Assembly: GCA_026770705.1 (NCBI GenBank)
Contig: JANJGN010000140.1
Location: 248,001 to 312,000, forward strand
Source: Isurus oxyrinchus
Taxonomy: Eukaryota
Reading direction: 5' to 3'
DNA length: 64,000 nt
This document shows positions 1,804 to 64,000 of this stretch, in pieces. The notes below the pieces were generated by a model. That model did no database searches. It saw only the letters and a list, made by a program, of their open reading frames with translations, and was not told the DNA's origin. Both the position numbers and the translations under genes were made by a program. The first letter of the stretch is position 1; every line of letters starts with the position of its first letter.

Positions 1804-2269
1804 ATGGGAATCCACTTTGTTTTCACTCTGTGTGTCTGTTTACCCCGTGAGTACCGATCACACAAACCGACATTATGTGGATGTCATATAAAGCTGCCCG
1901 GGTCCATCCCAATTACAGACAGGGGGTTTGACCCGGTTCTGTGATTCGGCTCTGATGGTCCATGAAACTATCTCTGTTTAATTTCCAGGAGATTTCAGTC
2001 AGCCAGTGGCACAAACCCCAGCAGTGGTGACCAGGAAGCAGTGTCAGTCTCTCACCATCACCTGTGTTTTCCATGCTGGTTATTGGGATATTTTCCAAAC
2101 GGGGCTTTTCATCAGACAAACCCAGACCGGGGCAGAGCGGGAGCGGATCTCCAGCAGGGGGACATTGAATGAATAATGAATAAAACAGAAAAGACATTTT
2201 CGTTGGAAATTTGGGATGTGAGAGTTGAAGGCACTACCACCTATTACTGTAAATCTCAGTACTACGTTA
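1804..2269 (+). pseudogene. NAR-TCR (IgNAR-like) V segment, cassette 1, frameshifted pseudogene
   Basis: Leader exon 1804-1846 (MGIHFVFTLCVCLP, phase-1 GTGAGT donor); acceptor TTTCCAG ending 1988. V exon 1989-2269 reads QPVAQTPAVVTRKQCQSLTITCVF...FIRQTQTGAERERISSRG, then a frameshift near 2160-2176 into NKTEKTFSLEIWDVRVEGTTTYYCKSQYYV. It has an extra FR1 Cys and the short FR2-to-Cys distance of NAR V domains. Confidence 0.85.
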
Positions 2270-2307
2270 CACAGCGACTGGCCTCGGCTTCCCGGGATAC
2301 AAAAATT
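2270..2307 (+). other. V 23-class RSS (22-nt spacer), cassette 1
   Basis: CACAGCG + 22 nt + ACAAAAATT directly after the YYC-containing V end. Confidence 0.85.
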
Positions 2308-2534
2308 CTCACTGCAGATTATCATAAAAACAGGTAAAAAAAAAAGCGGAGTTAATCTGCTGTTAAACGCCTACAGTTCCGCCTCACATCGTCTGCCCCC
2401 TCCCCCCCCCACCCCCCCCCCCCGCCCCCAGTCTAGTTTATAGTGCGATTGGATTATTGCCGTTAACATCTTCAGTTTTAAAACTACCAAGTAGATGGTG
2501 AAGGCTTCCCCGGGGTTGGTGTTGGTGAAACAGA

Positions 2535-5015
2535 GGAACATAGAAACATAGAAATAGGAGCCGGAGTAGGCCGTTCGGCCCTTCGATCTTGTTCCGCCAT
2601 TCAATATTATCATGGTTGATCCTCGATCTAAACACCATATTCCCGCTTTCTGTCCATACCACTTGATGCCACTAATATCCAAAAATGTGTCGATTTTTTC
2701 TTGAATATACTCAGTGACTCCATAGCCTTCTTTGGTCGAGAATTCTACAGGTTGACCACCCTCTGAGTGAAGGAATTTTCCTCATTTCGGTCCTAAATGG
2801 CCTTCCACGTATTCTGAAACGGTGGCCCCTGGTTCTGGACTCCCCAACCAGGGAAAACATCCTTCCTGCATCTAGTCTGTCTAGCGCTGTTAGAATTATA
2901 TGTGTTTCAATCAGATCCCCTCTCATTCTTCTAAACTCTAGTGAATGCAGGCCCAGTTGAACCAATCTCCCCTCATTCGACAGTCCTGCTATGCCCAGTA
3001 TCAGCCTCGTGAACATTCGCTGCTCTCCCTCTACGGCAAATATATCTTTTCTTGCGTAGAGAGACAAAATCTGCACGCAATTCTCCAGGTGTGTTCTCAC
3101 CAAGGCCCTTTGCAACTACAGTAAAACATCCATACTTCTGAAATCAAATCCACTTTAAATGAAGGCCAACATACCATTTTCCTTCCTAATTTGCCTGTTT
3201 AGTTTCATTGGCTGGTGTACAACGACACCCAAACTCCTTCCTACACCCATATTTCCCAATTTATCACCATTGATATAATGCTCTGACTTTCTGTTTTTCA
3301 CACCAAAGCGTAACTTTATATTTATCCACGTTATACTGCACTTGCCATGTGATTGCCGACACACACAGACAACTTGTCTCAATTGCCCTGAATCCCTGTT
3401 GCATGCTCCTCACATCTCACAGCCCCGTCCAGTTTTGTGTCGTCAGCAAACTTGGAAATATTGCATTTGGTTTCCTCATCCAAATTATCTATATATGTTG
3501 TGAATAACTGGGGCTGAAGCACTGATCTCTGCGGGACACCACTAGTCACGGCCTGCCACCTGGAAAAAAGACCCATTATTCCCACTGCCTGTTTCTGGTC
3601 TGTCAACCAATTCTCAATACAAGCCAGTATATTACCTCCAATCCCATGTGCTTTACTTTTGTCCACTAGACTCTTACGTGGGACCTTATTAAAACCTTCT
3701 TGAAATCCAAATACACCACATTTAGTGGTTCTCCCTTATCTATTCTACTAATTACATCCTCAAAAAACTCGAGTAGATTAGTTAAGCATGATTTCCCTTT
3801 CATAAACCAATGCTGACTTTGTCTAATCCCATTGATGCTTTCCAAGTGTTCAGTTAGCATGTCTTTTATAACAGACTCTAGCATTTTCCCCACAACTGAT
3901 GTTAGGCTAACTGCTCTGTATTATCTGTTTTTGCTCTCCCTCCTTTTTTAAAATAATGGGGTTACATTTGCCACTCCCCAATATGTAGGAACTGTTCCAG
4001 AGTCTATAGAATTTTGGAAGGTGACCACCTATGCATCCAATATTTCCAGCGTCACCTCCTTTAGAAATCTGGGATGTGGATTATCAGGCCCTGGGGATTT
4101 TTCAGATTTTAACCCCATTAATTTGTCCAGCACAATTTTTTTCACTAATGCTAATCTCCTTCAATTCCTCGCTCTCACTGGTTCCCTAACATTTCTGGGA
4201 AATTACTTGTGTTGCCTTTTGTGAAGGCAGAACCAAAATATCTCTTTAATTTTTATGCCATTTCTTTGTTCCCAACTATAGTTTCCCCCGCTTGTGAGTG
4301 TTAGTTTACTAATCATTTTCTCTTCGCATATTTATGGAAGCTTTTACAATCAGTTTTTATGTTCCCTGCAAGTTTACTCTCATACTCCATTTTCCCCTTC
4401 TTGATCAGTCTTTTTTTCCCGTTTTGCTGAATTCTAAACTGCTTCCAACTCTCAGGATTGAAGCTTTTTCTGGAAATTTTTTATGTCTACTCGTTGGATC
4501 TAATACTATCCCTAATTTTTTTTGTAATCCATGGTTGAACCATCTTTCCCATACTATGTTTGCGCCAGACGGGAATGAATAATTGTTGTATACGTTCCTT
4601 AAATATTAACCATTGCCGATCCACTGTCAGCTCTTTTCGTAAGGTTCCCTAATCCATCATTGCCAACTCTCCCCTCATAACCTTGCAGTTCCCTTTATTT
4701 AGATCCAGGACACTAGTTTCGGATTCAACTCCTTCACTCTCCACCTTAAGGAACAATTCTATCATGTTATTGTAGCTCTTCCCCCAGGGACCCTGCACAA
4801 CAAGGTTGTTAATTAATCCTTTCTCATTGCACAATACCCAGTCTCGGATAACCTGCTCTCCAGTTGGCTCCTCAACGTATTGGCCTAAACAACCATCACG
4901 TACAGACTCCAGGAATCGTCCTCCACAGTATTATTGCTAGTTTGGTTGCCCAATCAATATATAGATTAAAGTCACCCATGAATACAGTTGTACCCTTATT
5001 ACATACGTCTCTAAA
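2535..5015 (-). mobile_element. CR1-clade LINE (decayed ORF2 and 3' tail) inserted between V and D of cassette 1
   Basis: Minus-strand fragments GKSCLTNLLEFFE, VYLDFKK, VTSGVPQ, ISKFADDTKL, RRMRGDLIE; (TTCTATGT)n tail seen as ACATAGAAACATAGAA near 2538. Absent from the homologous V-D interval of cassette 2. Confidence 0.9.
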
Positions 5016-5170
5016 TCAGTAATTTGTTTTCTCATTTCTGAATGGGGATTAGGAATAACTGATCCCAGTTACAAACCCCTAACACCAGATGTGATCCTGT
5101 TCTAACAGCTGGAACCGGGAACTGCAGTCCCCGCTATTTAATGTCCCCACATCTCACCTAGTACCCGTGG

Positions 5171-5229
5171 GTATTTTATACTAACTTGTTACACGGGCAG
5201 TCACAGTGGGAGAGAGTAGGGCAAATACT
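5171..5229 (+). pseudogene. Remnant D segment with 12/12 RSS, cassette 1
   Basis: GTATTTTAT-12nt-CAC[deleted]GGGCAGT-CACAGTG-12nt-GCAAATACT. It is 14 nt shorter than the cassette-2 D and lacks most of the 5' heptamer and D coding region. Confidence 0.75.
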
Positions 5230-5536
5230 TTGTAAATATTAATTCTCCGGGCCCGGATAGTGAATTGTCCGGTTGATGTTAATATCATTGCAATCTGGTT
5301 ACATTTCATTTTAATTTTCACCATTCAGTAATCTTTCTTTGATATTTTTTCCGGTTTATATGAAGCGAATATCTCATTCCTGGGACCATTTACTCAGAGC
5401 TCAGGGTCTCAGAAAGAACAGTTTGAACAGATAGAGACTTTGAAACATTGAATATTGATTATTCATTTAAACCTGCTGTATAATTGTGAGGTGTCTACTG
5501 CCCGATGATGATTTCCTGGCAGGTTGAGTTGTCGAT

Positions 5537-5620
5537 GGTTCTTGTACCTGGGAGATTGAGAGTGGTGTGCTAATTATGTAGATGGATCCAGGATGGTGGT
5601 GACTGTCACAGCCGATAAGT
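5537..5620 (+). pseudogene. Remnant J segment, cassette 1
   Basis: Nonamer GGTTCTTGT + 23-nt spacer but no heptamer; coding ANYVDGSRMVVTVTA; donor mutated to ATAAGT (GTAAGT in cassette 2). Confidence 0.8.
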
Positions 5621-6179
5621 GACTCTGAAGCCCGCATGTTGCAGACTGTGCCGGATATTGTTCACAGTCAGCTTATTATTGTGATCAACATCGTTTCAAT
5701 CACATCGAAGCAAAAAAAAAAACGATTTCTAAGGGACCTTTTCCATTGCAGGCTTCAATTTAGGAACAGGGTATGATCGGACAGTCGGGTCATTTACCCG
5801 CCATTTCTTTCAATTGTCTTCATATACCCAATCATTTCCTCCTTTTCCATCCTCAGATCGAAATGTGAAAGTTTGGAACTGCAGAAACTTCTCTATATTG
5901 AATGTCGATGTTTGAGAGATGGGATTGCTGTAATTTATCTATATCCCTGATTACTGTGAATTAAAAACGCAAAGTGCAGTGAGAGAGTGAGGATGATGCA
6001 TTAATCTTATAAAGGAGAACAGGGACATAAGGAAAAAAATATAAACTGAGAGAATATTCATTTAGAACCAGCAAGAAATAATTCATCGAATGGGAGAGAA
6101 GGATTGGTTGATGTCTGGGTCGTTCAAAGTATAATCCGAGCACAGAGTGGTGGGCGATGTTTATGGAGAGAAGGACTTC

Positions 6180-6480
6180 AGTTTGGAATACTATGTAAAG
6201 TCTGGTATCTTACTTAGGGAAGGTTGTACATGCTTTGGAACAAATGCTCATCAGACTGATTCCTGAAGTAAAGGGATTGTCCTATGGGAAGGGATTGAGT
6301 AGACTGGGCCTGTGTTTCCTGGAATTTACAGCAATGAGGGCGATCTCATGAGAACACATATATCCTTAAGGAGCTTGAGAGGGAAGGTTCTAGGTGGGAG
6401 TTTCCTCAGGTTGGAAAGTCTATAACTGGGAGCCAAAGTTTCAGCATAAGGGGTCGGCCATTAGAATGGGGAAGAGAGAA
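6180..6480 (+). mobile_element. CR1 LINE 3' fragment in the J-V intron
   Basis: Decayed CR1 C-terminal coding sequence; a homologous fragment sits at ~16690-17230 in cassette 2, so it predates the duplication. Confidence 0.6.
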
Positions 6481-7023
6481 GTTTCAATCAATGCTGATTA
6501 ATCACAAACACTTTCATTTCGATCATGCTGCGCACAGTGATGCTGATGCTGATTATCCCGTACAATCATTTTTTGGAAACTGTTCCATCGGGGTGTCACT
6601 CACCAAGGAAAATAGAAGCAGAAATGTAATATACAACAGAGAACCATGCCGAGAGGTAGAATGACATTCGGCCCATCGTGGAGATGCTATCACTTTCAAA
6701 GTGCAATCTAATTTTTACCAAAACGCATGTATTTCCTCATGAGGCTGTACATTTTTCCTGTTGCAGTACAGATACATCAGCCATTTGAAAGTTCCCACTG
6801 AGTGCGTTCGCACCACCCATTCTGACCACGCAGTGCAGATTGGAAAAATTCTCGATACAAAAGAAAATTATCATCTCTGCACTTAATCACATTTCAATGA
6901 CGGTGAATACGGTTGGAACAGGCTTGCTTCAAGTTTAGAAAAACGAACCTTTCATGTCATTGACAAATTCTCCCAGGTAAACAATGGCTAAACAAACAAA
7001 TAATGTTATTTTAAATTCTCCAG

Positions 7024-7176
7024 ATTCCAGTTCCCTGGTGTCTTAGTGCCCACCTCTACAAACATCTGCTGTCGGTGACACCGTTACTTGAAGCTGTGAA
7101 TGTTCAGGGTTAGATCACGGAGAGAGCAGTTCAAAAACCTGAACATGGTGGGATTACAGACACAGTGATACAGAGC
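7024..7176 (+). pseudogene. Truncated supporting V-delta of cassette 1 fused to RSS-array remnants
   Basis: Acceptor TCTCCAG ending 7023; reads DSSSLVS*CPPLQTSAVGDTVT*SCECSG, homologous to 18713 onward. At ~7111 it jumps into an RSS spacer/nonamer (AGATCACGGAGAGAGCAGTTCAAAAACC), then the array linker and CACAGTG at 7161. Confidence 0.8.
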
Positions 7177-13351: not shown

Positions 13352-13653
13352 CATCGGCCATGTTTGTGTGACGTACTATCGGCCACGTTTGCGTGACGTA
13401 CTGTCGGCCATGTTGGTGTGACGTACTGTCGGCCATGTTGGTGTGACGTACTGTCGGCCATGTTTGTGTTGTACTGTCGGCCATGTTGGTGTGAAAAAGC
13501 TGTCTGCCAGGTTTGTGTGACATACGGTAGATCATCTTTGCGTGACGAAACTGTCGATCATGTTTTTGTGACGTACAGTCGGCCATGTTCGTGTGACTTA
13601 CTGTTGATCATGTTTTTGTGACGTCCTGTCGGCCATGTTTGTGTGACGTGCTG
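13352..13653. repeat. 25-bp tandem repeat, ~12 copies (TCGGCCATGTTTGTGTGACGTACTG)
   Basis: Head-to-tail units directly visible; most contain TGACG. Confidence 0.9.
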
Positions 13654-14512: not shown

Positions 14513-14948
14513 ATGGGAATCCTCCTTCTTTTCACTCTGTATGTCTGTTTACCCCGTGAGTGCAGATCAAACAAAACTGTCCGTATCCATCTCAAATACA
14601 GACACTGTCCGGGGTTTTAAACCAGTTCTGTGGTTCGGCTCTGATGCTCCATTAAACTCTGTTTAATTTCCAGGCTCTTTCAGTCAGTCAGTGGTACAGA
14701 CCCCGGCAGCGGTGACCAGGAAGGAGTGTCAGTCTCTCACCATCACCTGTGTTTTCAATGATAATTATTATTATTTTAAAAATGGGCATTTCTTCAGACA
14801 AACCCGGGACATTGTGGGAGCCGATCCACAGCGCGGGGAGAATTGTTGCGTCGGTGAATAAAGTAGAAAAGACATTTTCTCTGGAAATTCGGGATGTGAG
14901 AGTTGAAGACACCGCCACCTATTACTGTAAAGCTCAATACTATTGATA
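14513..14948 (+). pseudogene. NAR-TCR (IgNAR-like) V segment, cassette 2, frameshifted
   Basis: Leader 14513-14555 (MGILLLFTLYVCLP, GTGAGT donor); acceptor ending 14673. Reads SQSVVQTPAAVTRKECQSLTITCVFNDNYYYFKNGHFFRQT, then a 5-nt deletion relative to cassette 1 (~14805) shifts frame to GTLWEPIHSAGRIVASVNKVEKTFSLEIRDVRVEDTATYYCKAQYY. Confidence 0.88.
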
Positions 14949-14986
14949 CACAGTGATGGGCCTCGGCTTCCCGCGATACAAAAACT
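14949..14986 (+). other. V 23-class RSS (22-nt spacer), cassette 2
   Basis: CACAGTG + 22 nt + ACAAAAACT. Confidence 0.92.
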
Positions 14987-15302
14987 CTCACTGCAGATTG
15001 TCACAGAAACAAATGGAAAAGTGGAGTGAAGTCTGCAGTTAAACCCCCACAGTTCCGCTTCAGTTCCCCCACAGGACCGTCTGCCCCACAGTCTAGTTTA
15101 TAATGAGATTGGATTATTGCTGTTAACATCTTGAGTGTTATAAATGCCGAGTGTGTGCGGATGGTGATATTTTTCCCGGGATTGGTGTCAGTGAGTGAGG
15201 ATTGGGAACGATCCCAGTTACAAACCTGGTCTAACAGCTGGTACAGGGAACCGCAGTCCCTGCTGTTTAACTAATGTCCCCAAATCTCCCCAAGTACCCG
15301 GG

Positions 15303-15375
15303 GGACGTTATACTGACTTGTAACACTGTATGGATGGGTGAGGGAGTCACAATAGGAGAGACCTGAGCAAATACC
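15303..15375 (+). other. D segment (15331-15347, TGGATGGGTGAGGGAGT) flanked by 12/12 RSS
   Basis: GGACGTTAT-12nt-CACTGTA / 17-nt G-rich core / CACAATA-12nt-GCAAATACC. It lies between a 23-class V and a 23-class J, as the 12/23 rule requires. Confidence 0.8.
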
Positions 15376-15690
15376 TCTGTATGATTTAAATATAAATTCT
15401 CCGGGCTCGGATAGTGAATTGTCGGGTTAATGCTATTATCAATGGAATCTGGTTACATTTGATTTTAATTTCCACCATTCAGTTATCTTTCTTTGTTATT
15501 TTTGTCGGTTTACATGAAGCGAACATCTCGTTCCGGGCACCATATACTCAGAGCTCAGGGCCTCACAAAGAACAGTTTGACCCAACAGAGACTTTGGAAC
15601 GTTGAATATTGTTTAATTATTTAAATCCGCTGAATAATTGGGAAGTTTCTACTGTCTGATGATGATTTCCCGGCAGGGTGAGGTGTCGGC

Positions 15691-15788
15691 GGTTGTTGTA
15701 CCGGGGAGACTGAGAGCGGTGTCACTGTGGTGATGTATTAAATATGTGGATGGATCCGGGACGTTGGTGACTGTCACAGCTGGTAAGT
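15691..15788 (+). other. J segment (15730-15782) with 23-RSS and splice donor
   Basis: GGTTGTTGT-23nt-CACTGTG; coding (*)CIKYVDGSGTLVTVTA with the GxGT motif; phase-1 G|GTAAGT donor. The in-frame TGA at the 5' tip would need trimming. Confidence 0.9.
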
Positions 15789-16689
15789 GACTCCAAACCC
15801 CGCCGGCTTACAGACTGTCCCGGGTAATGTTCACAGACAGTTTATTATTGATATCAGTGGAGTTTGGGTGGGATGTGGGAGTTGATGGATTCTGGGCCAT
15901 TATTGGTTTAACGGGCACATCGGGGACAATATCAACATCATGGACCCTCAGACGCTGAATCGCTTTTAATGAGCGCAGATTGTTGACAATCCGGACTCCA
16001 CACCCAGTGTTAACTGTGACCGAGGGAACTCTGTCTGTCCCTTAGAGCTCGGGAGCGGGGTCACAGAGCTCTCTCCTGGGTAGCAGATTGCAGTCCAAGC
16101 CGCGCAATGTGAATGAGGCACCGGGTGAATAAACTCAACACAACTTCGGCCAGTTCGGATACCTGCAGCGGCTCTTTCAGTACCTGACCCGGGAGAAAAA
16201 CGGGAGAGTGACACCACGGACTTCAGAAATAAGACCCTGATGTGGGTCCAGGTGGAATTTTATTTTTGGACAATCAATGACTGAAATTAGTAACATTCTG
16301 CCTGCCATTTCTTTCAATTGTCTTCATAAAACGAATCACTTTCCTGCTTTTCCGCCCTCAGACTGAAATGTGAAAGTTTGGATCTGCAGACACTTCTCTA
16401 TATTGAATGTAGATGTTTGAGAGATGGGATTGCTATAATTTATCTGTATCCCTGATTACTGTGAATTGAAACAGCACAGTGCAGTGAGCGAGTCAGGGTA
16501 ATGCATTAATCTTATAAAGGAGAGTAGGGACAGAAGGAAACTGTGGGAATGTTCATTGAGAACCAGCAAGAAATAAGGAATCGAACGGGAGGGAAGGATT
16601 GAATGATTTCTGGGTGCCTTTTAAAGTACAATCCGACCCCAAGCTGTTGGATGAGGTTTATGGAGGGAAGGACTGAAATGGACTCCAGT

Positions 16690-17230
16690 CCGGAATGCTG
16701 TGTAAAGTTTTGTTCTCCTTACAGAAGAGAGATCAATCTGCATTGGAAGGAGCGTAACAATGTTTCATCAGACTGATTCCTGAGATGAAGGGATTGTCCA
16801 ATGGGAAGAGATTTAGTCGTCTCTGTCTATATTTCCTAGAGTTAGAAGAATGAGAGGTGATCTCATGAAAACATACAATATACTGAAGGGTTTTGACAGG
16901 GGAGATTCTGGGTCGGTGTCTCCCCAGACTGAGGAGTATAGAACTCGGGGTCACAGCTTCAGAGTAAAGAGTCATCCATTAGAACTGAGAAGGAAAAAAG
17001 CATCTTCACTAGAACCATTGTTGTGAATCTGTGGTATTCTGTAACTCAGAGGGCTGTGGATGTTCAGTATCTGTTTGCTTTGAAGACAATATTTGATAGG
17101 TTTATGGACACTAAAAGATCAGGGATATGGGGAGAGTGCGGGAATCTGACGTTGAGGTTGTAAATCAGCCAGGATATTCCTGAATGGCTGAGCAGGTTAG
17201 AAAGGTGATATGGGGGCTCCTGTTTCTATT
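16690..17230 (+). mobile_element. CR1 LINE 3' fragment
   Basis: Decayed LEFRRMRGDL-type sequence plus CR1 3' UTR. Confidence 0.7.
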
Positions 17231-18151
17231 GATTGGATTCTCTGCTTTGATTTTTTACACTCCTGAGAAAAGAAATCAGCAACAATCCACATCTCTTTGC
17301 GAAGATTGAACAGGCTGGGTCTCTTTTTTCTGGAAAACAGAACCAAGAGGAGAATCCATAGAAATCTTTTGAATCATGAACTGTTTTATGGTGGAGAAAT
17401 TGTTCATTTGTGGCTGAGTGTAAAGCAATAGCTGTCAACATATGACAGTAACTAACAGAACAAATAAAACATTTAAGACAAGTGAATTTAAACAAAGGCA
17501 GGTTAGAATGTGGAACTTGCTGCCACAGGGAGAGGTCGGGGCAGATAGTATTGATATATTTATTGGAACACTTGAAATTTCAGGAGGGAGAACGGAACAG
17601 ACCAACACAGGGAGCTGGATGGAAATGGTCAGTTAGGTTACTGGTGAGGTCAAGCTGGAATTGATTATATACAAAGGCTGAATGGCCCTTTCCTCTTTTG
17701 CATTCTTCTTCCTCTATAATGTAAAAGTGAGAGAGAACTCCGCCCAGTGAACCCAGGAGAGAATCAACCAATGGGCGGAAGGAATTGAAATTGTCAGAGA
17801 GCCAGAAGAGGCAGTTCCCAGTGAGTAACAGTTAAAATCGCTGCGGAAACTGAACAGACTGAGCCCAACCGACAACTGTGAGAATTTGGGACAAGTTCCC
17901 AGGATTGCAACAAGCACAAGCAGCACAAAATTAACGTGAAATAAAGGGAATGTGAACTTAAAGAAATAAAATGAAATTAATTGCATGTGTTCGAAATTAA
18001 GCTGAACTGGAGAAAAGTGGACCCTATTGATAGAATATATAGAAATAGAGCAAATGGCAGATAAAAATTCCCGAGCCGTTTTAAACCGCAGTAAATGATT
18101 GACCGTTCACCACGAGAGATGTTCACTCTCGGTTTGGCCCGATCGGTGTTG

Positions 18152-18200
18152 ATGAATCCCGTCAGTTTGTGTTGGATCTTGCTGTGCGCAGTGATGCCAC
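18152..18200 (+). pseudogene. Possible vestigial leader exon of the supporting V
   Basis: ATG-initiated MNPVSLCWILLCAVMP, a signal-peptide-like 16-mer about 510 nt upstream of the V acceptor. AC stands where a phase-1 GT donor is expected. A decayed homologue sits at ~6497-6545. Confidence 0.45.
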
Positions 18201-18712
18201 ACAGCTGTGTTTCTCTCCAACAAACATGTTTTTTTTGGAAATTGATTGACTCACTGATCATAAAATGCTCCCCCGGCTATGTGTCTCACCAAGGAAAGTA
18301 GAAACCGGAATGTAATATAATTCATAGAATTATCCAGCACGGAAGGATGACATTCGGCCCATCGTGTAGGCGCTGACCCTTTAAAAGTGTAATACAATTG
18401 TTCCCACTGCCCATGAATTTTCTCCTTGCTCTATATTTGTATTTACATTTCTAGCACAGACCCATTACCCGTTTGAAAGTTACTATTGAATCTATCCCCA
18501 ACACCAATTCAGACAGTCCAGTCCTGATCGGAAGAACTCGCAATGTAAAATAAAACATCACCTAATTCCCCATTTGGTCATATTTTCATAACAGTGAACA
18601 AGGTTCTAATAGGCTTCCAGCAAATAAAATTACTGCAAAAAACAGAGCTATTCACACGATTGACAAATTCTCCTGGACAAATATTGGCTGTGTTCATTTT
18701 TTTATCCTCCAG

Positions 18713-19012
18713 ATTCCAGTTCCATAATTTCCCGGATTTCGCCTCTAGAAATCTCTGCCATCGCTGACACCGTTATTTTAAACTGGGGATATTCAGGGTT
18801 CTGCACAGTACACTGGTACCGTCAGTCCCCAGGACAGGCTCCGGAATATCTGCTTCAGGGACACATTTCAGGAGAGGAGAATAAAGAAAATGCTGCCTGG
18901 GGGAGAATTTCTGCTTCTGTCGATTCTACCGAGAAAATCAGCCGGTTGAAGATCTCCAAATTACAATTGAGCGACTCCGCACTTTATTACTGTGAACTGA
19001 GTCGGCGCACAG
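18713..19012 (+). other. Leaderless supporting TCR V-delta-like segment, cassette 2 (open frame, Cys23 to Trp)
   Basis: Acceptor TCCTCCAG ending 18712, phase-compatible with the J donor (G+AT = Asp). Reads DSSSIISRISPLEISAIADTVILNWGYSGFCTVHWYRQSPGQAPEYLLQGHISGEENKENAAWGRISASVDSTEKISRLKISKLQLSDSALYYCELSRRT, with WYRQ, DSALYYC and a CDR1 Cys. The first canonical Cys is TGG here but TGT in cassette 1. Confidence 0.88.
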
Positions 19013-19438
19013 CACAGTGATATAGAGCACGGAGAGAGCTGTACAAAAACCTCAGCATGGTGCACAGTGATACAGAAACCGGAGGGCGCTGTACAAAAAC
19101 TTAACATGCTGGGATTACAGACACACAGTGATACAGAGCACGGAGAGAGCTGCACAAAATCCTGAACATGGTGGGATAACAGACACACAGTGATACAGAG
19201 CACGGAGAGAGCTGCACAAAATCCTGAACATGGCGGGATAACAGACACACAGTGATACAGAGCACGGAGAGAGCTGTACAAAAACCTGAACATGGTGGGA
19301 TTACAGACACACAGTGATACAGAGCACGGAGAGAGCTGCACAAAATCCTGAACATTGCGGGATAACAGACACACAGTGATACAGAGCACGGAGAGAGCTG
19401 TACAAAAACCTGAACATGGTGGGATTATAGACACAGTA
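19013..19438 (+). repeat. Tandem array of seven complete 23-RSSs plus one degenerate copy (62-bp unit)
   Basis: CACAGTG at 19013, 19063, 19124, 19186, 19248, 19310 and 19372, each followed by exactly 23 nt and ACAAAAACC, ACAAAAACT or ACAAAATCC; CACAGTA at 19432. Confidence 0.93.
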
Positions 19439-21728: not shown

Positions 21729-24700
21729 ATGCACGGCCGAATATCTGGTGTAGTTTATGCCATTTACTATCCAATTCTTGCTGCTATTGGAGTTCCGGGT
21801 AAGTCTTTGGGCTAAACCATCAATTGGACAAAGCACTGTTTTATGGATTTCCAGCATCCGCAGTTTTTTGTTTTTATCTCTGTGTTTAATTGACTGCCAC
21901 TTCTCTTCAAGAAATGCCTACCTTGAATAAGTACTGCTCTGCTCTCCGACAGGATTTTCGTATCTCTCTTTTGCCTTGTTCACTGCTTGCTTGTCCCTAC
22001 AACCACCGCCCGGCACCCCCCCCAATCCACATCTCTCCCCACAACCCCACCCCCCCAACCCCCACCTTAAACCAGCTTATATTTCACCCATCTCCTAATT
22101 TTACTCAGTTCTGTTGAAGGGTCAGCTTTATTTTTCTCCATCAATGCTGCCAGACCTGCTGAGTTTTTCCAGGTATTTTTGTTTTTGTTTTGGATTTCTG
22201 GCATCTGCAATTTTTTTTGTTTTTATCACTGTTGTATGAAGCTGGTTCTGTCAATGACAATTAAAAATTGTGATATTGTCATCTTCAGGCATTTCTTTAA
22301 ACTCATTTGATCAGGGATATACAAACTTTCCACCGTTTTAATATTCCTTTGTTTTAAACTCAAGCATTAATAATTAAGTCTCTGAAAAACCCAAAACACT
22401 GCGTCTATTCCTTTCCACCATCCCATGCCAAGGCTGCTCAGGTTGCTAGATTGATTTCTAAAAAGTAATATTCTGGTAACCTTTTCGAAATCGATAGTTC
22501 ACGGATATTCTTCTACAAGTGAGTAACTGGAGAATACATATCTAACGATACCAACTTTAGGTAGATTTTGATTTTGCGTTAGTCTAAAAATGGCAATTGC
22601 CATTGTTATATGTGCCTTTAATTATGGTTCCATTGTTTTCAGGTGAATTACAATTCTGGACGGATGTGGAATGAGCTGCAGATTCATTAACAGCCATTTC
22701 ACATTTCTGCCTGAAGTTAAGATTCACCTACCTGAAATGGTTGAGGTGTGAAATTGACCTTGAGCTGTGAAGCAAGCTGGCTGCCAGTTTTACACTCGAT
22801 GCAGTCCTCTGTCCCATTGACATCGGAGGCTTGGAAATCAGACCAAGTGTAAAACTGTCAGCTCATTCAATCCAGCCTAAAAACGGTTCCTGCCCCATGG
22901 AAGTCAAAGGATATCGAGTGCAGGTGGGAATGTGGAGCTGTGGCCATGCTCAGATCAGCCAAGATCTTATTGAATGGCGAAGCAGGCTAGAGGGGCCGAA
23001 TAGCCTGTCTCTGCTCCTGATTCGCATGTATGTATGTCTTTGAAATACTCGCCCAAGGCTACTGAATTAATAGTTTAGAGTCAATATAGTGATCTTCCCT
23101 TTGAGTTTGGGCTCCTTTACATTAAGCCAATCAATCACTATTTCCCATTCTGCGCTAAAATTGCCCTTCAATTTGTCTCTTTATGGGTTTGCTGTTACAA
23201 CGAAAGCCATGAAGTTATGAACTAAATGAAGTCTAAAAATGAATGCGGAGATCTGATCAAAATAATCACTGGTGTCAAATGTTTTTAATTACAAAGTCAA
23301 TCATTATACTTACCGAGTAAGTTAACATAAGTAGTTATGTTTCAGTTCTTTATCGCTTTCATGAGAAAACCAGGTGAATATTTACTTTTTGTATTGTATC
23401 TTACTGAGTCGCCGCTACTTTGTTCTAATGATTTTGCTACTCTGTGTTCTGAAACATTTTTCTCTGGCCAGAGCTGGTTGAGCGAGGAAGGAAATGCTGT
23501 TGTGTTATTTCATACATGACAAAATCCCCGGTAGATAACCGAGATCAGTCGTGTTTGCAAAAAATTTTTGTGGCTGAGAAAAGGAATGTACAATTTAACA
23601 TAGACCTTTCACGGGAACCAGGTTATGTTCCGTGAGCAGAAACTCATGCTTACATCACTGGATTAATGATCCAGAGGCCTGAGCCAATGACATGAGTTGC
23701 AATTCTAATTCTACTAATTAATTTAAATGGAGATAATAAATAACTCTGGAATAAAGTTGAAGTGCCAGAAATAGTGATCAGGCAACTACAAGATCATCGC
23801 AATAAACTTTACCCGGTTCACTAACGTCCTTCAGGGAAGGACATCTACTCCGGCTCTGATATGATTCCAGATCCACAACAATGTGGTTGAACATTATCGG
23901 CCTTCTGAAATGACCCAGAAAACCATTCAATTGGTAGGTGGCGGCTGGCCACCCTCTGAAAGGCAGTTAGTGATGGACCTTATACCTTATACCCTTGCGT
24001 TGTGTGCTCTTTTTTCTTGCAATTTTTGGATACTTACCTGGCAAGGGAGAGACCTTCATCGCGTTTCTGCCAGGGAAAGAGCAATGACTATAACCAGTCA
24101 AACCCCTTACCATGGGGTACCTAACACCATCTGAGTCATGGTGAAGCGCAGCGAGCAAGGAACAGGAATGGATAGGACCTTCTTCACCAAGAGGATTCTA
24201 TTCAAGCTGTGTGGTTTTGAGGCTGTGGAGATCTACTGCCTACAGGATTTCCCCAGCGCTGGTTTCTTTGATGTGACCTTCAAGCAAGTGGCAGCTTGTG
24301 TCAAACTCCTGAAGGTGTTTGAGGAAAAGGAAGACCTGCCAGAAATGAAGATCCTGACAGCGGAGCCGCTCTTTGCTCTACCGTTGCAACGAGAACGGGT
24401 TGCGACGGTGCATCAGTACAACCCCTACGTCCGTGTCGCTGACGTGCTCACCTTCCTTATCAGGTACTTCGATAAGGTTGGGAGCTGCACTGAGGTTAAA
24501 GATAATTTGGGGATCTGGACATGTAAACGCCAGGTTAATGTAATGCTCAAGACCGACGGTAAGGGAGCCGGTTTCCACCCCACTTCCAGATTTGCTATCG
24601 GGAGAAGCCATGGGTACCTTGTCTACGCTGGGCAACCCAAACTTTCTAGCTCATGCGGCAAGTCTGGTCATGTGGCGGCCAACTGCAGTGCCGCCCTCTA

Positions 24701-35345: not shown

Positions 35346-35704
35346 GATGGTATGCCCAATTCCAGCTGGGCATCAAATACTGGTCTTGCCAGTGACACCC
35401 ACATCACATGAACAAATTAGAAAAAGGAAAGAAACTGGAATTGTCTGTTCTGAATTTCTATCCCTTACTGACTTCAGTAAACTCCTTTTACAGGATACTT
35501 GAACAGGAAGATTTGCTGACAGGAAACTCAAAGAAAACATCACGTCACAATCTGACAGATTCACTCAATACATCTGGAGCTGGATATCATTGAATCTTTA
35601 ATATAGAAGGAGAAATGTTTTACCAATTGCACAGCCTGAAAAAGCATTGCACCATTCACATCGAGGACAAATTGTGTGGATGAGGTTTGAACTAACCACC
35701 CAAC

Positions 35705-36469
35705 ATGGATAGCCACGAGGACACCAGCACCATGGTGAAACCATGGAAATGTGGGGACTGTGGGAAGGGATTTGGTTCCCCATCAAAGCTGGAAATTCAT
35801 CAACGCAGCCACAATGGGGAGAGGCCATTCACCTGCTCCGTGTGTGGGAAGGGATTCACTCATTCATCCAACCTTCTGAGACACGAGCACATTCACACTG
35901 AGCAGAGTTCAGTCATCTGCTCCGTGTGTGGGAAGGCAATCATTCATTCATCAAACTTTCTGAGGCATCAGCAAACTCACAGTTTAGAGAGGCCGTTCAC
36001 CTGCTCTGTGTGTGGGAAGGGATTCACTCAGTCATCCTACCTGCTGACACACCAGCGCATTCACACAAGGGAGAGTCCATTCATCTGTTGCTTGTGTGGA
36101 GAGGGATTTAACCGATTATCCAGGCTTCTGACGCATCAGAGAATTCACACTGGGGAATTTGGGAAGGGATTTAATCGGCCATCCAAACTACTGACACACC
36201 AGCGAATTCACACTGGGGAGAGGCCATTCACCTGCTCCATGTGCAGGAAGGGATATACCAATTCATCTGACCTGTTGACACATCAGCGAGTTCACACTGG
36301 CGAGAGGCCATTCACATGTTCCATGTGTGGAAAAGGATTCATTCGGTCATACCACATTCTGATACATCAACTTGTGCATACTGATCAGAGACCTTTTAAA
36401 TGTTCTGACTGTGAGAAGACCTTTAAAAGTGAAAAGGATCTGATTACACACCAGCGAGTTCATAAGTGA
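35705..36469 (+). CDS. Tandem C2H2 zinc-finger protein (8 intact fingers + 1 broken), ZNF-1
   Basis: Repeated CxxC-x12-HxxxH with TGERPF linkers; upstream acceptor TTTTACAG at ~35492. The 5' part of the exon is decayed and no promoter is seen, so it may be a pseudogene. Confidence 0.75.
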   Translation: MDSHEDTSTMVKPWKCGDCGKGFGSPSKLEIHQRSHNGERPFTCSVCGKGFTHSSNLLRHEHIHTEQSSVICSVCGKAIIHSSNFLRHQQTHSLERPFTCSVCGKGFTQSSYLLTHQRIHTRESPFICCLCGEGFNRLSRLLTHQRIHTGEFGKGFNRPSKLLTHQRIHTGERPFTCSMCRKGYTNSSDLLTHQRVHTGERPFTCSMCGKGFIRSYHILIHQLVHTDQRPFKCSDCEKTFKSEKDLITHQRVHK

Positions 36470-36569
36470 CTATGGGGATTGAAATCTGGTTACTGTTGCT
36501 GTTAATCCTGTTCAGGATTGAATTCTTTCATTTTGACAGCTGGAGTTTGTTTCTGCTGAAATATAATTG

Positions 36570-41850: not shown

Positions 41851-42558
41851 CTGCCTTTGTCAGCAGGAGGAGAGAATATTGTGCATTTCTATCCTGGACT
41901 GACAGGGCTGGATTTTGGAAAATGATTAATTCATTGATTTTATTGTCAGTCTGCAGACAGGAGCTGGAGAATTGAACCCAGGCAGAGGAGACGGAGGGAG
42001 AAAATTGTGAGTGGAGGAAAGAAATGGAGGAGATGGGTTTGGATTTCAGCCCAGGGAGGAGGGAGAGTGTGTTGTACGTGAATTTACAGCTTTGGGGGAA
42101 CAAGAGAAAAAACAATATTCCGCTAAAACTAGAATTGTTTGTTCTGACTTTCCATCCCGGACTGACAGTGATGACTTTTATAAACTCGTTTTCCAGGGTA
42201 TTAGAAGGGAAGGATTTGCAGATGTGAAACTCAAACCGAACATCTTCTGACAGAGTCACCCGGTTCACCAGAACCTGAATATCCTCGGATTTTGAATGTG
42301 GAAGGAGAAATGTTTGTCTGTTCTGTTCGTGGGGAAAGATACTTAACTTCAGTGTCACTGGAAAAACACCGAGACACACACACACACACCCGAGTGAGAG
42401 TGTTTCAGTGAACTGACTGTGGAAAGAGCTTTAACCAGCTGAACAGCCTGAAAAAGCATCACATCGGTCACAGTGAGGAGAAACCATACACATGTTCTGT
42501 GTCTGGACAAGGTTTCAACTGATCATTCAACCTGGAGAGACACAAAGACACCCGCACT

Positions 42559-43458
42559 ATGGAGAAACCATGGAAATGTGAGGACTCTGGGAAAGGATTC
42601 AGTTACTCATATCTGCTGGAAAACAATAAACGCAGTTACACAGGGGAGAGGCCATTCACCTGTTCTATGTGCGGGGAGGGATTTACTCAGTCATCTGGCC
42701 TTTGGTCACACCAGCGCATTCACACTGAGGAGAAGCTATTCAACTGCACTTCCTGTGGAAAGAGGTTCAGGCATTCTTCTGCACTCACTGTACACCAATG
42801 CACTCACACTGGGGAGAGGCCATTCACCTGCTCCGAGTGTGGGAAGGGATTTACTCAGTCATTCCACCTGACACAGCAGCGAGTTCACACTGGAGAGAGG
42901 CTGTTCACTTGCTCTGTGTGTGGGAAAGGATTCACTGGGTTATCCCACCTGCTGTCACACCAGCGAATTCACATTGAAGAGAAGCCATTCAGTTGCACTT
43001 CCTGTGGAAAGAGTTTCCGGCAGGCATCCTCCCTCATTTTACACCAGCAAGTTCACACTGGGGAGAGACAATTTGCCTGCTCCATGTGTGGGAAGGGATT
43101 CACAGTTTTACCCAACCTGCTGAGACACCAGCAAATTCACACTGGGGAGAAGCCATTTAGCTGCACTTCCTGTGGGAAGAGTCTCAGGCAGTCATCCAAC
43201 CTCACTGCTCACCAATGCACTCACACTGCGGTGAGACCATTCACATGCTCCGTATGTGGGAAAGGATTCAGTTGGTCATCCAACCTCACCGCACACCAGC
43301 GAGTTCACACTGGGGAGAAGCCATTCACTTGCTCGCTGTGTGGGAAGGGATTTGCAAAATCTTTCAACCTGCTGACCCACCAACGCACTCACATTGAGAA
43401 GAGGTTATTCAACTCTCAGTGTGTGGGAAGGGATTCACTCAGTCACGATGCCTCCTGA
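42559..43458 (+). CDS. Tandem C2H2 zinc-finger protein (8 intact fingers), ZNF-2
   Basis: TGERPF/TGEKPF-linked C2H2 array; degenerate fingers upstream of the ATG and a frameshifted last finger; acceptor TTTCCAG at ~42197. Confidence 0.82.
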
Positions 43459-44039
43459 GACATCAGCAAGTTCATAAGTGACTGCAGGGTTTGGATCCTG
43501 CTGTTCTTGCTGCTTGTAAGCTTGTTTAGTATTGATAGTCTGGCAATATTTTGTTTCTGCTGATGTTCACAACCGTATAACTGGCTCGAGTTTAATATTC
43601 TGGAGATATCACTGATTTTCAGGGCTGCAGTGTCCCTTTTTAAAAGCACCATCTGTGATCCTTCCCCTTAATTTCAAAAACTTTCAGTGGGAACCCCTTG
43701 ACAATAAAATTATGAACTTTTACTACAATCGTAAATTGATATTTGGTGAAAAATCTACAATTCAGTGTCTGAAAGATTTAACTGCAGGGATCTAAATTTT
43801 TTTTCAATGCCAATGGGAAGAGGATAACCAGGGAAAGAGTAGGGCTCATTAGGGACCAGTGGGCCTTGACATCTTGACCAACATTCAAGGCTATGGGCCA
43901 AATGCTGGTAAATGGGATTAGGTAGGTAGGTCAGGTTTTTCTCACGTGTTGGTGCAGAATCGATGGGCTGAAGGGCCTCTTCTGCACTGTGTGATTCTGA
44001 GACGATTTCAGGTGTGACTGGAAAAATGCCGAGACACAC

Positions 44040-45220: not shown

Positions 45221-47108
45221 AAATCGGTCCCACAAATGGCTTAATTATCACTTATACTCACAAAGCTGATGTAGTGATACAAGATTTAAAATAGTTCCTG
45301 TAATATGTGCCCTGAACACCACACACCCATCCCCAAGGCTATGTCATCACATCTACAAGAACCGCGATCTTCAGATGATAAGGGAATTATCCAGGAATCT
45401 TATTGGTCTGAATGCAGGGAGAGAGATGGGTGGACTGTGACCACCCAGTTGCCAAGACCCCGATGTTAAGGCAGTTTTCGGAAAACACTGTGATTGTCCC
45501 TGTGATAGTGACACCAGTAAAAAGGGTGGAGGGAAGAGAGAGATCGGTGACTGGGCTGGAATAGAGGCCACGGCTGGCACAGCAGCTGAGAAGCACTTAG
45601 ACATGGACAATATGTGGGAACAGGACGAGGCTGTGAGGCAGCAATGGACAGGAATCTTCAGTAAAAGAAATAAAAGGCAGAGAGATGAAATCCTGGAACA
45701 AGAAGGAGTGAAATCCAGAAAAGAGATGGTGGACGCACTGATCGAGAGAAAGGGAATGGTCAATGAGATCATTCAGCACAATAAGATTGAGGTGAAAAGT
45801 CAGAACATGTCTAAAGCTGTTCCCTGTGTGATGTAAGGAAGGTTTTTTATTGGATCAGATACAACAAGGCCAGGAGGACATTGAAAAGCAATAGAGAGCC
45901 CAAAGGCTCTGGAGGGGGAGGGTTAATAATCCCAGGGAGTCACAGGCTGCACAAACTTCAAATATGAGCCCAGACCCATTGTAAAGCAGTGAACAAATAA
46001 ATCCCTGAATTTACTGAGACTCTTTTCTGTGTCCCAGCTCCTAGAAATACTGACTGGAAAGGGCCCGGAATCTCAGGAGGCTGCACACCGCTGGCTGCTC
46101 ATGAGGAAGTGATCTCCGATCAAATTAATGTGCTTCTGCTGTGAGTATTTAATAAAGTGTCTGAACCCCTCATTGTGCTTCCTGTCCAATATCCGCCCCC
46201 ATGCATGGACCTTCTGTTTTACCAACTGGGGGAAAAAAATGCCCGTTCACTGATTGGTATCATTGACAGCTGGTTTATCCAGAATGCCCTGTGGGTCAGA
46301 AAGTCCCCTATCAATGAGAACAGGAACCCAGAGCGCCAGCATGGGGACCGGGCTGTGCTCTGAGGCAGGGGCACAGCTGGGCGATGTTACTGAGGTGGAA
46401 ATGGATGGTTTTAGTGATTTGTAGTCAGAAGCTCAGCTTGGGCTGAAATATGACAACAAGATTGTGAGCAGTCTGGTTCAGCCTCAGAGAGCTGCAAGAG
46501 GGATGGAGTCGGTGGTTCGGGAGCGGAGACAATGGCTTTCATCTTCCCAACATTTAAATGGAGGAAATTTCTGCTCATCCAGTACTGGATGTCAGACAAG
46601 TTAGGACAGTGTGTGAGTTGGAGGTGATGGTGTTCACTGACATCTGTTACCTTCGTCCTTCTAGGTAGTGGATGTTGAGGGATTGGGATATTCTGCCAAA
46701 GTTCTGGTTGAGCTGAAGATGTATTAAAAACATCTTCACCCTCTGCACCTCCCACCTCTCTCTTTCCTCCCATGGAGGCCAGAGTCCTGTGTAACCCAGA
46801 CCAGGTGGCAGGTTCCATTCCCTGAAGGGCATTAGTGAACCAGTTGTGTTTTTATGACAATCCGGCAGTTTTCATGGTCACTTTTTCCTGGTGCCAGCCC
46901 CACACATTAACAGATTCATTCAGCTCGATTTCACAACCTGCCTTTGTGTTTTTGTGGATTCTCTCTCTCTCCCTTTTTTCTGTTTTAAATCAGTTTCACA
47001 GGGGATTACAAGGGGAGGATTTGCAGTCGGGAAACAGAAACAAAACATCACAGCAGAATCTGACATTCGCCCGATTTATCATAACCTGAATATCATTTGA
47101 TTTTGAAC

Positions 47109-47786
47109 ATGGAAGGAAAAAGTACCGTTCACAGTGGAGAGAAATCGTACACATGTCCTGTGTGTGGACAAGGCTTCAACCAATCATCTGACCTGTCAAG
47201 ACACAAGCGCAGCCACATCGGGGAGAAACCATGGAAATGTGGGGACTGTGGGAAGGGATTCAGATTCCCGTCAGAACTGGAAGAGCATTGGCGCATTCAC
47301 ACTGGGGAGAGGCCGTTCACCTGCTCCACCTGTGGGAAGGGATTTACCCTCTCATCCAACTTGCTGAGACACCAGCGAGTTCACAGTGACGTGAGACCTT
47401 TTAAATGCCCAGACTGTGGGAAGTGCTTTAAAAGTTCCTGGGAGCTGATGTACTATCAGTGTGTTCACACTGACAAGAAACCATTTAAATGCTCTCAATG
47501 CGGGAATGGGTTCAGGCGATCATCTCAACTCATTGTACACCAGCGAATTCACACTGGGGAGAGGCCGTTCACCTGCTCCACTTGTGGGAAGGGATTCACT
47601 TATTCACCCCACCTGCTGAGACATCTGCGAGTTCACATGGGGGAGAGACCGTTTATCTGCTCTGAGTGTGGGAAGGGATTCACTCGGTCATCCCACCTGC
47701 TGACACACCAGCAAGTTCACACTGGGGAGAGGCCATTTAGCTGCCCCAGTGTGGGAAGGGATTCACTCAGTTATCTAGCCTGCTGA
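47109..47786 (+). CDS. Tandem C2H2 zinc-finger protein (6 intact fingers before a frameshift), ZNF-3
   Basis: [19 protein letters not shown]... A frameshift near 47745 truncates the array; further decayed fingers with a stop continue to ~48062. Confidence 0.75.
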
Positions 47787-48234
47787 GACACCAGCAAATT
47801 CACAGTGGGAAGAGGCCGTTTTCCTGCCCTCAGTGTGGGAAGAGATTCACTACCTCATCCAACCTGCTGACACACCAATGAATTCACACTGGAGAGAGGC
47901 CATTCACCTGCCCTCAGTTTGGGAAGAGATTTACTACCTCAAACAACCTACTGATACACCAGCGAGTTCACACTGAGGAGAGACCATTCACTTGTGCCCA
48001 GTGTGGGAAGCGATTCACTCATTCACCCCACCTGCTGCGACACCAGCGAATTCACAAGTAACGACAGTGATGGGATTTTGCTGTTCATCACATCTAGGAC
48101 TGAATCATGTTCATTGGGGCCTGTTTCCGCTGATGTTAATAAACTACAGCCCACTTATAGGGTCTAATCTGGCGAAAAGTCAAATAAATTAGTTTTGTGT
48201 TAAAGACACACTGCGTTGAATCTTTTTAATATCA

Positions 48235-59979: not shown

Positions 59980-60705
59980 ACCCAACATGCACGGCGGCTG
60001 CGAATGTGCCTTATTAACGGTACAGGAGCCCAGTGCGCAGGTGCAATGCTGGAAACCGTCTCGGGCATGCGCAGTGTCACTGATCGGAGCCCTGTGAGTG
60101 CAATGGATGTTTTTTTCTGCGGGTGAGAGCTGGTGTGAGGAACGGAGCCGGCAGTCCTGGGTGGGGTGGGTGGAGAGAGGGCAGATTTTATAAACAGCCG
60201 CTGTAGGCCACAAGCTCCGAGTTAGACCCTGCAGGTCCAGCGTTTGTACTTCCGGGACTTTTTCTCTGGAATAGGCCCAGATTAATGACCATCATGTTGA
60301 AAACAAAGAAAACTGCGGATGCTGGAAATCTAAAACAAAAACAGAATTACCTGGAAAAACTCAGTAGGTCTGGCAGCATCGGCGGAGGAGAAAAGAGTTG
60401 ACGTTTCGAGTCCTCATGACCCTTCGACAGAACTTGAAGTTCTGTCGAAGGGTCATGAGGACTCGAAACGTCAACTCTTTTCTCCTCCGCCGATGCTGCC
60501 AGACCTACTGAGTTTTTCCAGGTAATTCTGTTTTTGTTAATGACCATCATCTTTGTTCAGCGCTGAGCAGAGCGCGTGCGCGGCAATCTTGGTGACGCAA
60601 CAGGGTGTGGGCGGGGCTCCAGGTTCCCGGTGAGCAGCAGATTGACAGGTCTGGGTTAAAGGCTGCCATTTTTCCAGGAGCCAGCTTTAGGACGCATGCG
60701 TGGCC
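59980..60705 (+). promoter_or_regulatory. CpG-rich promoter/first-exon region, probably for ZNF-4
   Basis: NRF1-like GCATGCGCA and GCGCGTGCGC motifs, GGGCGGGG, candidate donors GG|GTGAG (60123, 60630), YY1-like GCCATTTT; homologous blocks to 41580-41850. Confidence 0.6.
60296..60538. mobile_element. Young Penelope-like insertion forming a perfect 205-bp palindrome
   Basis: Arms 60334-60435 and 60437-60538 are exact reverse complements around G60436; TSD TTAATGACCATCAT at 60282 and 60537. Confidence 0.85.
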
Positions 60706-63400: not shown

Positions 63401-63734
63401 TCCTCCTATAGTGTCCAAAGTTCCCTTTAGGTCCAGACTGGGTGACAGTTTCCCTTCCCTGAAGGACATTAATGAACCAGTTGGGTTTTTATGACAGCCC
63501 TTCAGCTTTAATGGTCTTTTTTCCGATTGCAAGTCCCATAAATTCATTCAACACAATTTCACAGTCTGTCTTTGTGTTTTTGTGGGTTCTCTGTCACTCT
63601 TTTTTTTCTGTTTTAAATTTCACAGAGTATTAGAAGGGGAGGATTTGCAGCCGGGAAACTGAAACCAAACATCACATCAGGATCTGACAGAGTTGCCCAA
63701 TTTATATTAACGTGAATATTATCGGATTTTGAAT

Positions 63735-64000
63735 ATGGAAGGGAAAAGCACCATCCATAATGGAGAGAAACTGTACGTGTGTTCTGTGTGTGGACGAGGC
63801 TTCAGCCAATCATCTGGCCTGTCGAGACACAAGCACAGTCACACTAGGGAGAAACCATGGAAATGTGAGGACTGTGGGAAGGAATTCACTCATTCATCTG
63901 CCCTGCTGAATCACCAGCGTGATCACACTGGGGAGAGACCATTCACCTGTTCCGTGTGTGGGAAGGGATTCACTCGGTCATTCCACCTGATGACACACCA
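63735..64000 (+). CDS. Tandem C2H2 zinc-finger protein, 5' part (runs off window), ZNF-4
   Basis: Acceptor TTTCACAG at ~63625; [79 protein letters not shown]; paralog of ZNF-3. Confidence 0.85.

Follow-up and report, generated by a model that had tools for sequence, protein, structure and literature searches.

The window analysed here, a 64,000-nt stretch of the Isurus oxyrinchus genome (GCA_026770705.1, contig JANJGN010000140.1, positions 248,001-312,000, forward strand), carries on its plus strand two cassettes of the NAR-TCR type (Table 1), each consisting of a leader, an IgNAR-like V, a single D, a single J and another V, behind which 23-RSS units are repeated in tandem. Cartilaginous fish have NAR-TCR (doubly rearranging TCR-delta) cassettes, reportedly described by Criscitiello in 2006. 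The diagnostics given in the available text of PMC1845163 are an A-B-loop Cys and a missing WYRK Trp in the first V, together with a CDR1 Cys in the second. In the translations, the first V is IgNAR-like, has a leader and the A-B-loop Cys and lacks the WYRK Trp, and a paralog exon gives a Pfam V-set match and finds VNAR domains as its best matches among solved structures (E 8.5e-20). The segments follow the order V-RSS, RSS-D-RSS, RSS-J with spacers of 22/23, 12, 12 and 23 nt, an order that is partly destroyed in cassette 1, and a supporting V-delta with a CDR1 Cys and its own RSS lies downstream in cassette 2 and in the paralogs, the supporting V exon being preceded by a splice acceptor.

The architecture is the one known from the NAR-TCR of cartilaginous fish, with the same leader, NAR-type V, D, J and second V with CDR1 Cys and 23-RSS, and cassette 1 is an ordinary dead member of this family. 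The differences from the NAR-TCR described in the accessible parts of PMC1845163 and PMC6795676 are that cassette 1 is dead, that more than 100 cassettes are present here, one-third of those examined being pre-joined, and that a minisatellite of RSS units follows the supporting V. The V exon of cassette 1 is broken, with a reading frame that is open in the inferred ancestor of the clade to which it belongs. Its V-D intron contains a retroelement fragment with a weak RVT_1 match (E 1.9e-6, 28.2 bits, below the cut-off of 29.6), which occupies a single insertion site in eight full-length members of the clade and of which additional copies lie within the window. Cassette 2, which had served as the reference for the original prediction, is a pseudogene too: its V is frameshifted, its D heptamers read CACTGTA and CACAATA, the Cys of its supporting V is changed to Trp, and its CDR1 has lost 6 nt.

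Table 1. Features of the two cassettes (positions in the window) and joined or paired paralogous loci
Feature	Position	Strand	Remarks
Cassette 1	1804 to beyond 7176	+	
Cassette 1 leader exon	1804..1846	+	ATG at 1804, GT donor at 1847; matches the family leader
Cassette 1 NAR-type V exon	1989..2269	+	A-B-loop Cys, no WYRK Trp
Cassette 1 V RSS	2270..2307	+	heptamer CACAGCG, 22-nt spacer, nonamer ACAAAAATT
Retroelement fragment (~2.5 kb) in the V-D intron of cassette 1	2526..5038	-	common to the clade
D 5' 12-RSS remnant	5171..5194	-	D lesion: loss of 4 nt of the heptamer and 10 nt of D
7-nt D remnant and intact D 3' 12-RSS	5195..5229	+	CACAGTG-12-GCAAATACT
J 23-RSS remnant	5537..5568	-	nonamer 5537-5545; J lesion lies between 7-nt imperfect direct repeats
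J remnant	5562..5616	+	splice donor AT instead of GT
Supporting V remnant, FR1 to CDR1	7024..7111	+	TGA stop 7089-7091; junction 7111/7112
First part of the 23-RSS minisatellite (62-nt units)	7112..7176	+	entered 4 nt into the spacer
Cassette 2	14513..19435	+	reference of the original prediction; also a pseudogene
V-D joined loci (a)			L088, L098, L105, L108, L111, L118, L124, L129, L135
V-D joined loci (b)			L139, L141, L149, L150, L155, L162, L165, L175, L179
V-D-J joined loci (a)			L091-L096, L099, L104, L113, L117
V-D-J joined loci (b)			L120, L125, L131, L138, L142, L147, L151, L154, L170
Module pairs, upstream then pre-joined (examples)			L097/L096, L100/L099, L105/L104, L130/L131, L169/L113

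The minisatellite 3' of the supporting V has a 62-nt period, is found in both cassettes of the window (19013-19435 and 7112-7176) and in paralogs, and each of its units amounts to a near-perfect 23-RSS. There are seven such units in cassette 2 (19013-19435), and the number of strict units ranges from 0 to 7 per cassette among the 92 cassettes counted.

The original prediction held that cassette 1 has suffered three deletions, at D, at J and in the supporting V, each straddling a RAG cut site. The three losses relative to cassette 2 are real, and full D and J signals are present in all 30 aligned paralogs; since these carry the long form, the losses are deletions in cassette 1, and insertions in cassette 2 are ruled out. 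Cassette 1 is part of a 15-copy clade that is spread over six contigs, with five copies on a 40-Mb contig, and is supported at 1.0 in one tree and at 100 in another. The copies are as little as 87% identical around J (they differ by up to 13%) and yet share the junctions, which excludes somatic and assembly products and shows the lesions to be inherited and old; the suggestion that they are germline deletions is thereby borne out.

At D, cassette 1 is 14 nt shorter at 5194/5195, corresponding to 15327-15340 of cassette 2. The lesion straddles the heptamer-coding border with the segments staying in place, its junction shows neither microhomology nor added letters, and it is present in 8 of the 15 clade copies, the remaining seven being without the whole D region; an extra 7-nt deletion lies immediately 3' of the D 3' nonamer of cassette 1. 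The loss of part of the heptamer and of most of D was therefore described correctly, but the lost heptamer letters are not TGTA, which is a mutation of cassette 2; the family has TGTG at this place. Of the three, the D lesion qualifies best as a possible RAG scar, yet any end-joined break would look identical.

The J lesion, which is found in 15 of 15 clade copies, comprises 14 nt missing at 5561-5569 and includes the entire heptamer. Two placements with equal mismatch counts are available (15716-15729 or 15723-15736 of cassette 2), and they remove either 7 signal and 7 coding nt, so that the lesion straddles the cut site, or 14 signal-side nt, so that it abuts it. This ambiguity arises because the spacer ends in GCGGTGT and most J segments start with GTGG, and the loss of 7 coding nt with an intact spacer, as had been proposed, thus holds for one placement only. 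The slippage at microhomology that had been named as an alternative gains from these data, given that the suspected microhomology is present and that the loss is flanked by 7-nt direct repeats (GCGGTGT / GTGG(T)NT). The junction has no added letters, and 14 of the 15 clade copies have AT at the J splice donor.

In the supporting V, at least 223 nt are missing at 7111/7112 (18801-19023 of cassette 2), the length being 223 nt against cassette 2, 229 nt against the consensus, and more if the deletion ends in a later repeat unit. The lesion is present without added letters in 15 of 15 clade copies; it starts just upstream of the CDR1 Cys codon, takes the true heptamer and 4 spacer nt and ends inside the tandem 23-RSS array. 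A loss of more than 200 nt from CDR1 into an RSS spacer is hence what is seen, but its reported start about 3 nt before a cryptic CACAGTA does not hold for the family: among the 50 pattern-matched supporting Vs (of 93 cassettes with a supporting V), the distance is 9 nt in 37, and it is 3 nt only in the 13 that have the 6-nt CDR1 deletion, cassette 2 included.

The genome yields 107 matches to a J motif, and the 9-kb stretches around 100 of these and around 17 further BLAST hits make up a set of 117 cassettes, 57 on the 40-Mb contig and 60 on six shorter contigs, which is incomplete. Each cassette was aligned to the family consensus, and since some of the 117 may be alleles or haplotigs, indels were counted once per shared event and not per copy. 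In total, 334 distinct indels of at least 4 nt with well-aligned flanks were found, including, after a flank-quality filter and with two split alignments of the J lesion merged, 206 deletions of 4-60 nt. Enrichment of indel breakpoints at heptamer borders, the check that had been proposed for a RAG origin, shows no family-wide excess: two of the 206 deletions remove at least 3 heptamer nt, both in the cassette-1 clade, against 2.4 expected under uniform placement, an expectation that would drop because this null ignores purifying selection, and 2.75 with placement outside the framework exons. Repeat-guided deletions are common in the family, with microhomology of at least 3 nt at 43 of the 206 deletions and at 157 of 2000 random placements.

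Within the clade, 0.34 heptamer hits are expected, and the probability of two or more is 0.045. In the 5' half of the clade stem branch, two of three deletions of at least 4 nt hit heptamers (P 0.004 for this branch alone), and the probability that any of 83 branches has two hits lies between 0.027 (5' half, 58 events) and 0.059 (whole cassette, 203 events). The two hits affect one 12-RSS and one 23-RSS.

The reading favoured here, to which we assign a probability of roughly 0.7, is that all three deletions result from ordinary break repair or slippage and were carried by the common ancestor of at least 15 dead copies. The J loss would be a deletion guided by two 7-nt direct repeats that lie 14 nt from each other, the D loss a plain end-joined deletion, and the loss in the supporting V one among several large deletions of the 3' half that ended in an unstable RSS minisatellite; once a first signal had been lost, the remaining ones would have been free to decay. 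The same branch carries the 2.5-kb retroelement insertion, deletions of ~440, 1061 and 55 nt that lie away from any RSS, several small indels and a stop codon, and other lineages have deletions of 282 to 1509 nt that are unrelated to RSS. Against this reading stands the timing: given the open V exon of the clade ancestor and a 5' half that is 2-7% diverged from the family consensus, the copies may have split not long after the cassette died, and the D and J lesions may fall within a short interval. The 3' half, from J onward, differs from the consensus by 10-18%; the contrast between the two halves has the appearance of a chimera or of conversion of the 5' half.

A less probable reading, which is put forward tentatively, takes the D lesion, either by itself or along with that at J, to be the product of germline RAG open-and-shut joining and the loss in the supporting V to be separate decay. 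In that case a single synapse would have brought about cutting at both the D 5' 12-RSS and the J 23-RSS, and the breaks would each have been trimmed and resealed in place. Both lesions include or abut cut sites, lie on the same branch and form a legal 12/23 pair, and the D lesion is without microhomology; moreover, the at least five likely germline RAG joins in the family described below make a RAG origin of D and J conceivable. P and N additions are common in open-and-shut joints, though not obligatory, and neither lesion has such letters. Heavy signal-end loss is needed at both sites, the J loss is flanked by repeats, and no further case of heptamer trimming occurs among the 206 deletions. 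The available part of PMC2193590 discusses signal-end loss in open-and-shut joins, and that of PMC2193153 cites a hybrid joint in the germline IgH of the horned shark, but nonstandard joints account for only ~5% of RAG products according to the excerpted text of PMC2213516. The estimate for RAG at D and/or J is a judgement and not a computed posterior, and it results from a coincidence of 3-6%, raised by the J repeat and weighed against the rarity of the product. That a single germline RAG event produced both lesions, with the two breaks of a 12/23 synapse shut again and the cassette killed, is considered rather improbable. If true, an open-and-shut scar would have become fixed in a TCR locus that also has at least five RAG coding joints, one of which is an in-frame, invariant NAR domain preserved in a dozen open copies, and germ-cell RAG would both build and destroy shark T-cell-receptor cassettes; germline open-and-shut joints in sharks are not reported in the literature searched, supplements being outside the search.

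It is very improbable that all three lesions are RAG scars, the loss in the supporting V then being a hybrid joint of the supporting-V RSS with the cryptic heptamer in CDR1. The 50 pattern-matched paralogs do conserve CACAGTA, or a version differing by one letter, in CDR1, and the 3' breakpoint lies 11 nt from the true cut site; however, the break is 9 nt from the cryptic heptamer in 37 of the 50, the true heptamer and 4 nt are gone, and about one-third of the positions in the 62-nt RSS array are equally close to a cut site, with 9% to 28% of all cassette positions lying within 10 nt of a heptamer-like word. The 12-spacer nonamer of the cryptic heptamer, CAGTCCCCA, agrees with only one of the nine consensus letters, and the nonamer at 23-nt spacing (5/9) would give a 23/23 pair. 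A hybrid joint should have two usable RSS of the 12/23 type and largely keep its signal end; the lesion in the supporting V has no usable 12-RSS partner and has lost 11 nt from the signal end, and it was rejected as such a joint, several other large deletions being present in the 3' half of the clade. The remaining explanation, by which the lesions stem from misassembly, from a somatic event in lymphocytes or from cassette-2 insertions, could point to the tandem repeat that adjoins the loss in the supporting V, but it is refuted by the diverged copies on six contigs and by the long form of the aligned paralogs and has a negligible probability.

Compared with the RAG open-and-shut and hybrid joints of PMC2213516, PMC2193590 and PMC2193153, as far as the available text of these papers describes them, the D and J lesions are similar in the small loss at the heptamer-coding border; they differ in that the lesions lose 4-14 nt of the signal ends, have no P or N letters and, at J, show microhomology, while the lesion in the supporting V has no valid partner signal and there is no family-wide excess. 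The genuine joints in the family strip the signals and keep the coding ends, whereas the three lesions erode the signal ends by 4, 7-14 and 11 nt. The interpretation of the three lesions as fixed open-and-shut or hybrid RAG joints is for these reasons not upheld. As decay, the lesions are ordinary and of little import; the census of joined cassettes counts for more.

The joined paralogs, which lie outside the window, are a stronger lead and clearer evidence of germline RAG activity than the three lesions of cassette 1. The original prediction had cited the germline-joined Ig genes of cartilaginous fish, and germline joining of V(D)J type is seen in this gene family: 37 of the 117 cassettes are pre-joined, 18 of them V-D and 19 V-D-J, and 80 are split, with no join of D and J only. 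In the 37, both RSS and the intervening DNA are gone and the coding ends are joined with small loss or gain, as in the germline-joined shark light chains covered by the available text of PMC2193156. The 18 V-D cassettes have an untouched D 3' RSS and J and form four groups that differ in their V ends and D segments; in one group, all 25 V-end letters and all 17 D letters survive, separated by 2-3 letters, in another the two ends overlap over a short stretch, and a single origin of the V-D group is rejected (p-AU 2e-5, with 7 joined rows among 32). In the four V-D cassettes of one group (that of L098), the V exon and the supporting-V exon are both open. All 19 V-D-J copies have the same in-frame junction, constant in length, which amounts to one origin; 12 have a stop-free exon (one of their leaders came out 1 nt short), four have a stop and a lost leader, and three have an internal deletion. 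The supporting V is open and has an RSS in all 16 V-D-J cassettes that have one of their own, and pN/pS is 0.53 over eight open exons.

The joined cassettes are inherited, with junctions shared by diverged copies whose exons are up to 12% apart, and they keep promoter and introns, which argues against retroposition. Contigs from four of four public runs (four studies under two organism labels, one of the runs possibly being the source of the assembly) run on from the V end into the junction, which one of them spans completely. To judge from the structure of the joints, by which RAG activity in germ cells was also deduced for shark light chains (PMC2193156, in the part available), the pre-joined cassettes likely record at least five occasions of RAG acting in germ cells.

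Germline-joined Ig genes are known from nurse shark NS4 light chains (PMC2193156) and from VD-J and VDJ IgH clusters (PMC6795676), again as given in the accessible text. The 37 cassettes resemble these in the complete removal of the RSS, in coding ends that are trimmed or intact, in several origins and in later duplication; they differ in that the joined shark genes in these sources are Ig and the joined cassettes here encode a chain of TCR-delta type, and the lesions of cassette 1, unlike germline-joined Ig, are not coding joints. Germline-joined NAR-TCR is not reported in the literature searched, key NAR-TCR papers and supplements being outside the search, and its novelty is provisional. Marsupial TCR-mu V-mu-j, as presented in the excerpted text of PMC7615758, is likewise a two-V-domain TCR chain with one pre-joined, invariant domain. 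In that system, however, it is the inner supporting domain that is joined, most likely by retrotransposition, whereas here it is the outer NAR domain, the promoter, the leader intron and the J-V intron are kept, and the supporting V retains its RSS. No RNA data were listed that contain the joined V-D-J exon; if expressed, the 12 stop-free pre-joined domains, together with the 16 of 16 open supporting Vs, would provide a ready-made, near-invariant shark T-cell receptor. Furthermore, with more than 100 cassettes and dated joins, the rate and the by-products of germ-cell RAG activity become countable.

In several places, an NAR V-D-J module without a supporting V of its own is followed, 4-5 kb downstream, by a pre-joined module with a supporting V (Table 1). 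Such paired modules could splice alternatively to one supporting V or serially, to give a chain with two NAR domains.

A separate observation concerns the coding flanks beside intact heptamers (the V 3' end and the D and J 5' ends), which vary strongly in length throughout the family. On the tree, 16 flank-length steps are found at V, 10 at D, 10 at J and 1 at the supporting V, and length steps in non-coding 20-nt windows average 2.1, with 2 of 180 windows reaching 10. These frequent steps at V, D and J would fit RAG-triggered gene conversion at the cut sites, but near-identical cassettes swap V ends, in tracts of ~50 nt about the heptamer whose matches are in distant paralogs, and in a comparison of 14 close pairs the V end alone stands out (in three pairs) and D and J are unremarkable; selection on CDR3 accounts equally well for the changes in flank length.

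Elsewhere in the window, an imperfect tandem repeat (13354-13653) lies upstream of cassette 2, and a short exon-like frame ending at a GT donor is found at 21729-21800, the translation of which presumably resembles membrane helix 1 of class A GPCRs. Repeats with an 84-nt period and C2H2 zinc-finger motifs occupy 35400-36500, 42100-43550, 46900-48100 and 63600-64000 on the plus strand, with 8, 8, 8 and 2 motifs, respectively, and positions 60334-60538 form a near-perfect palindrome of 205 nt (204/205), in which a common repeat is arranged head to head.
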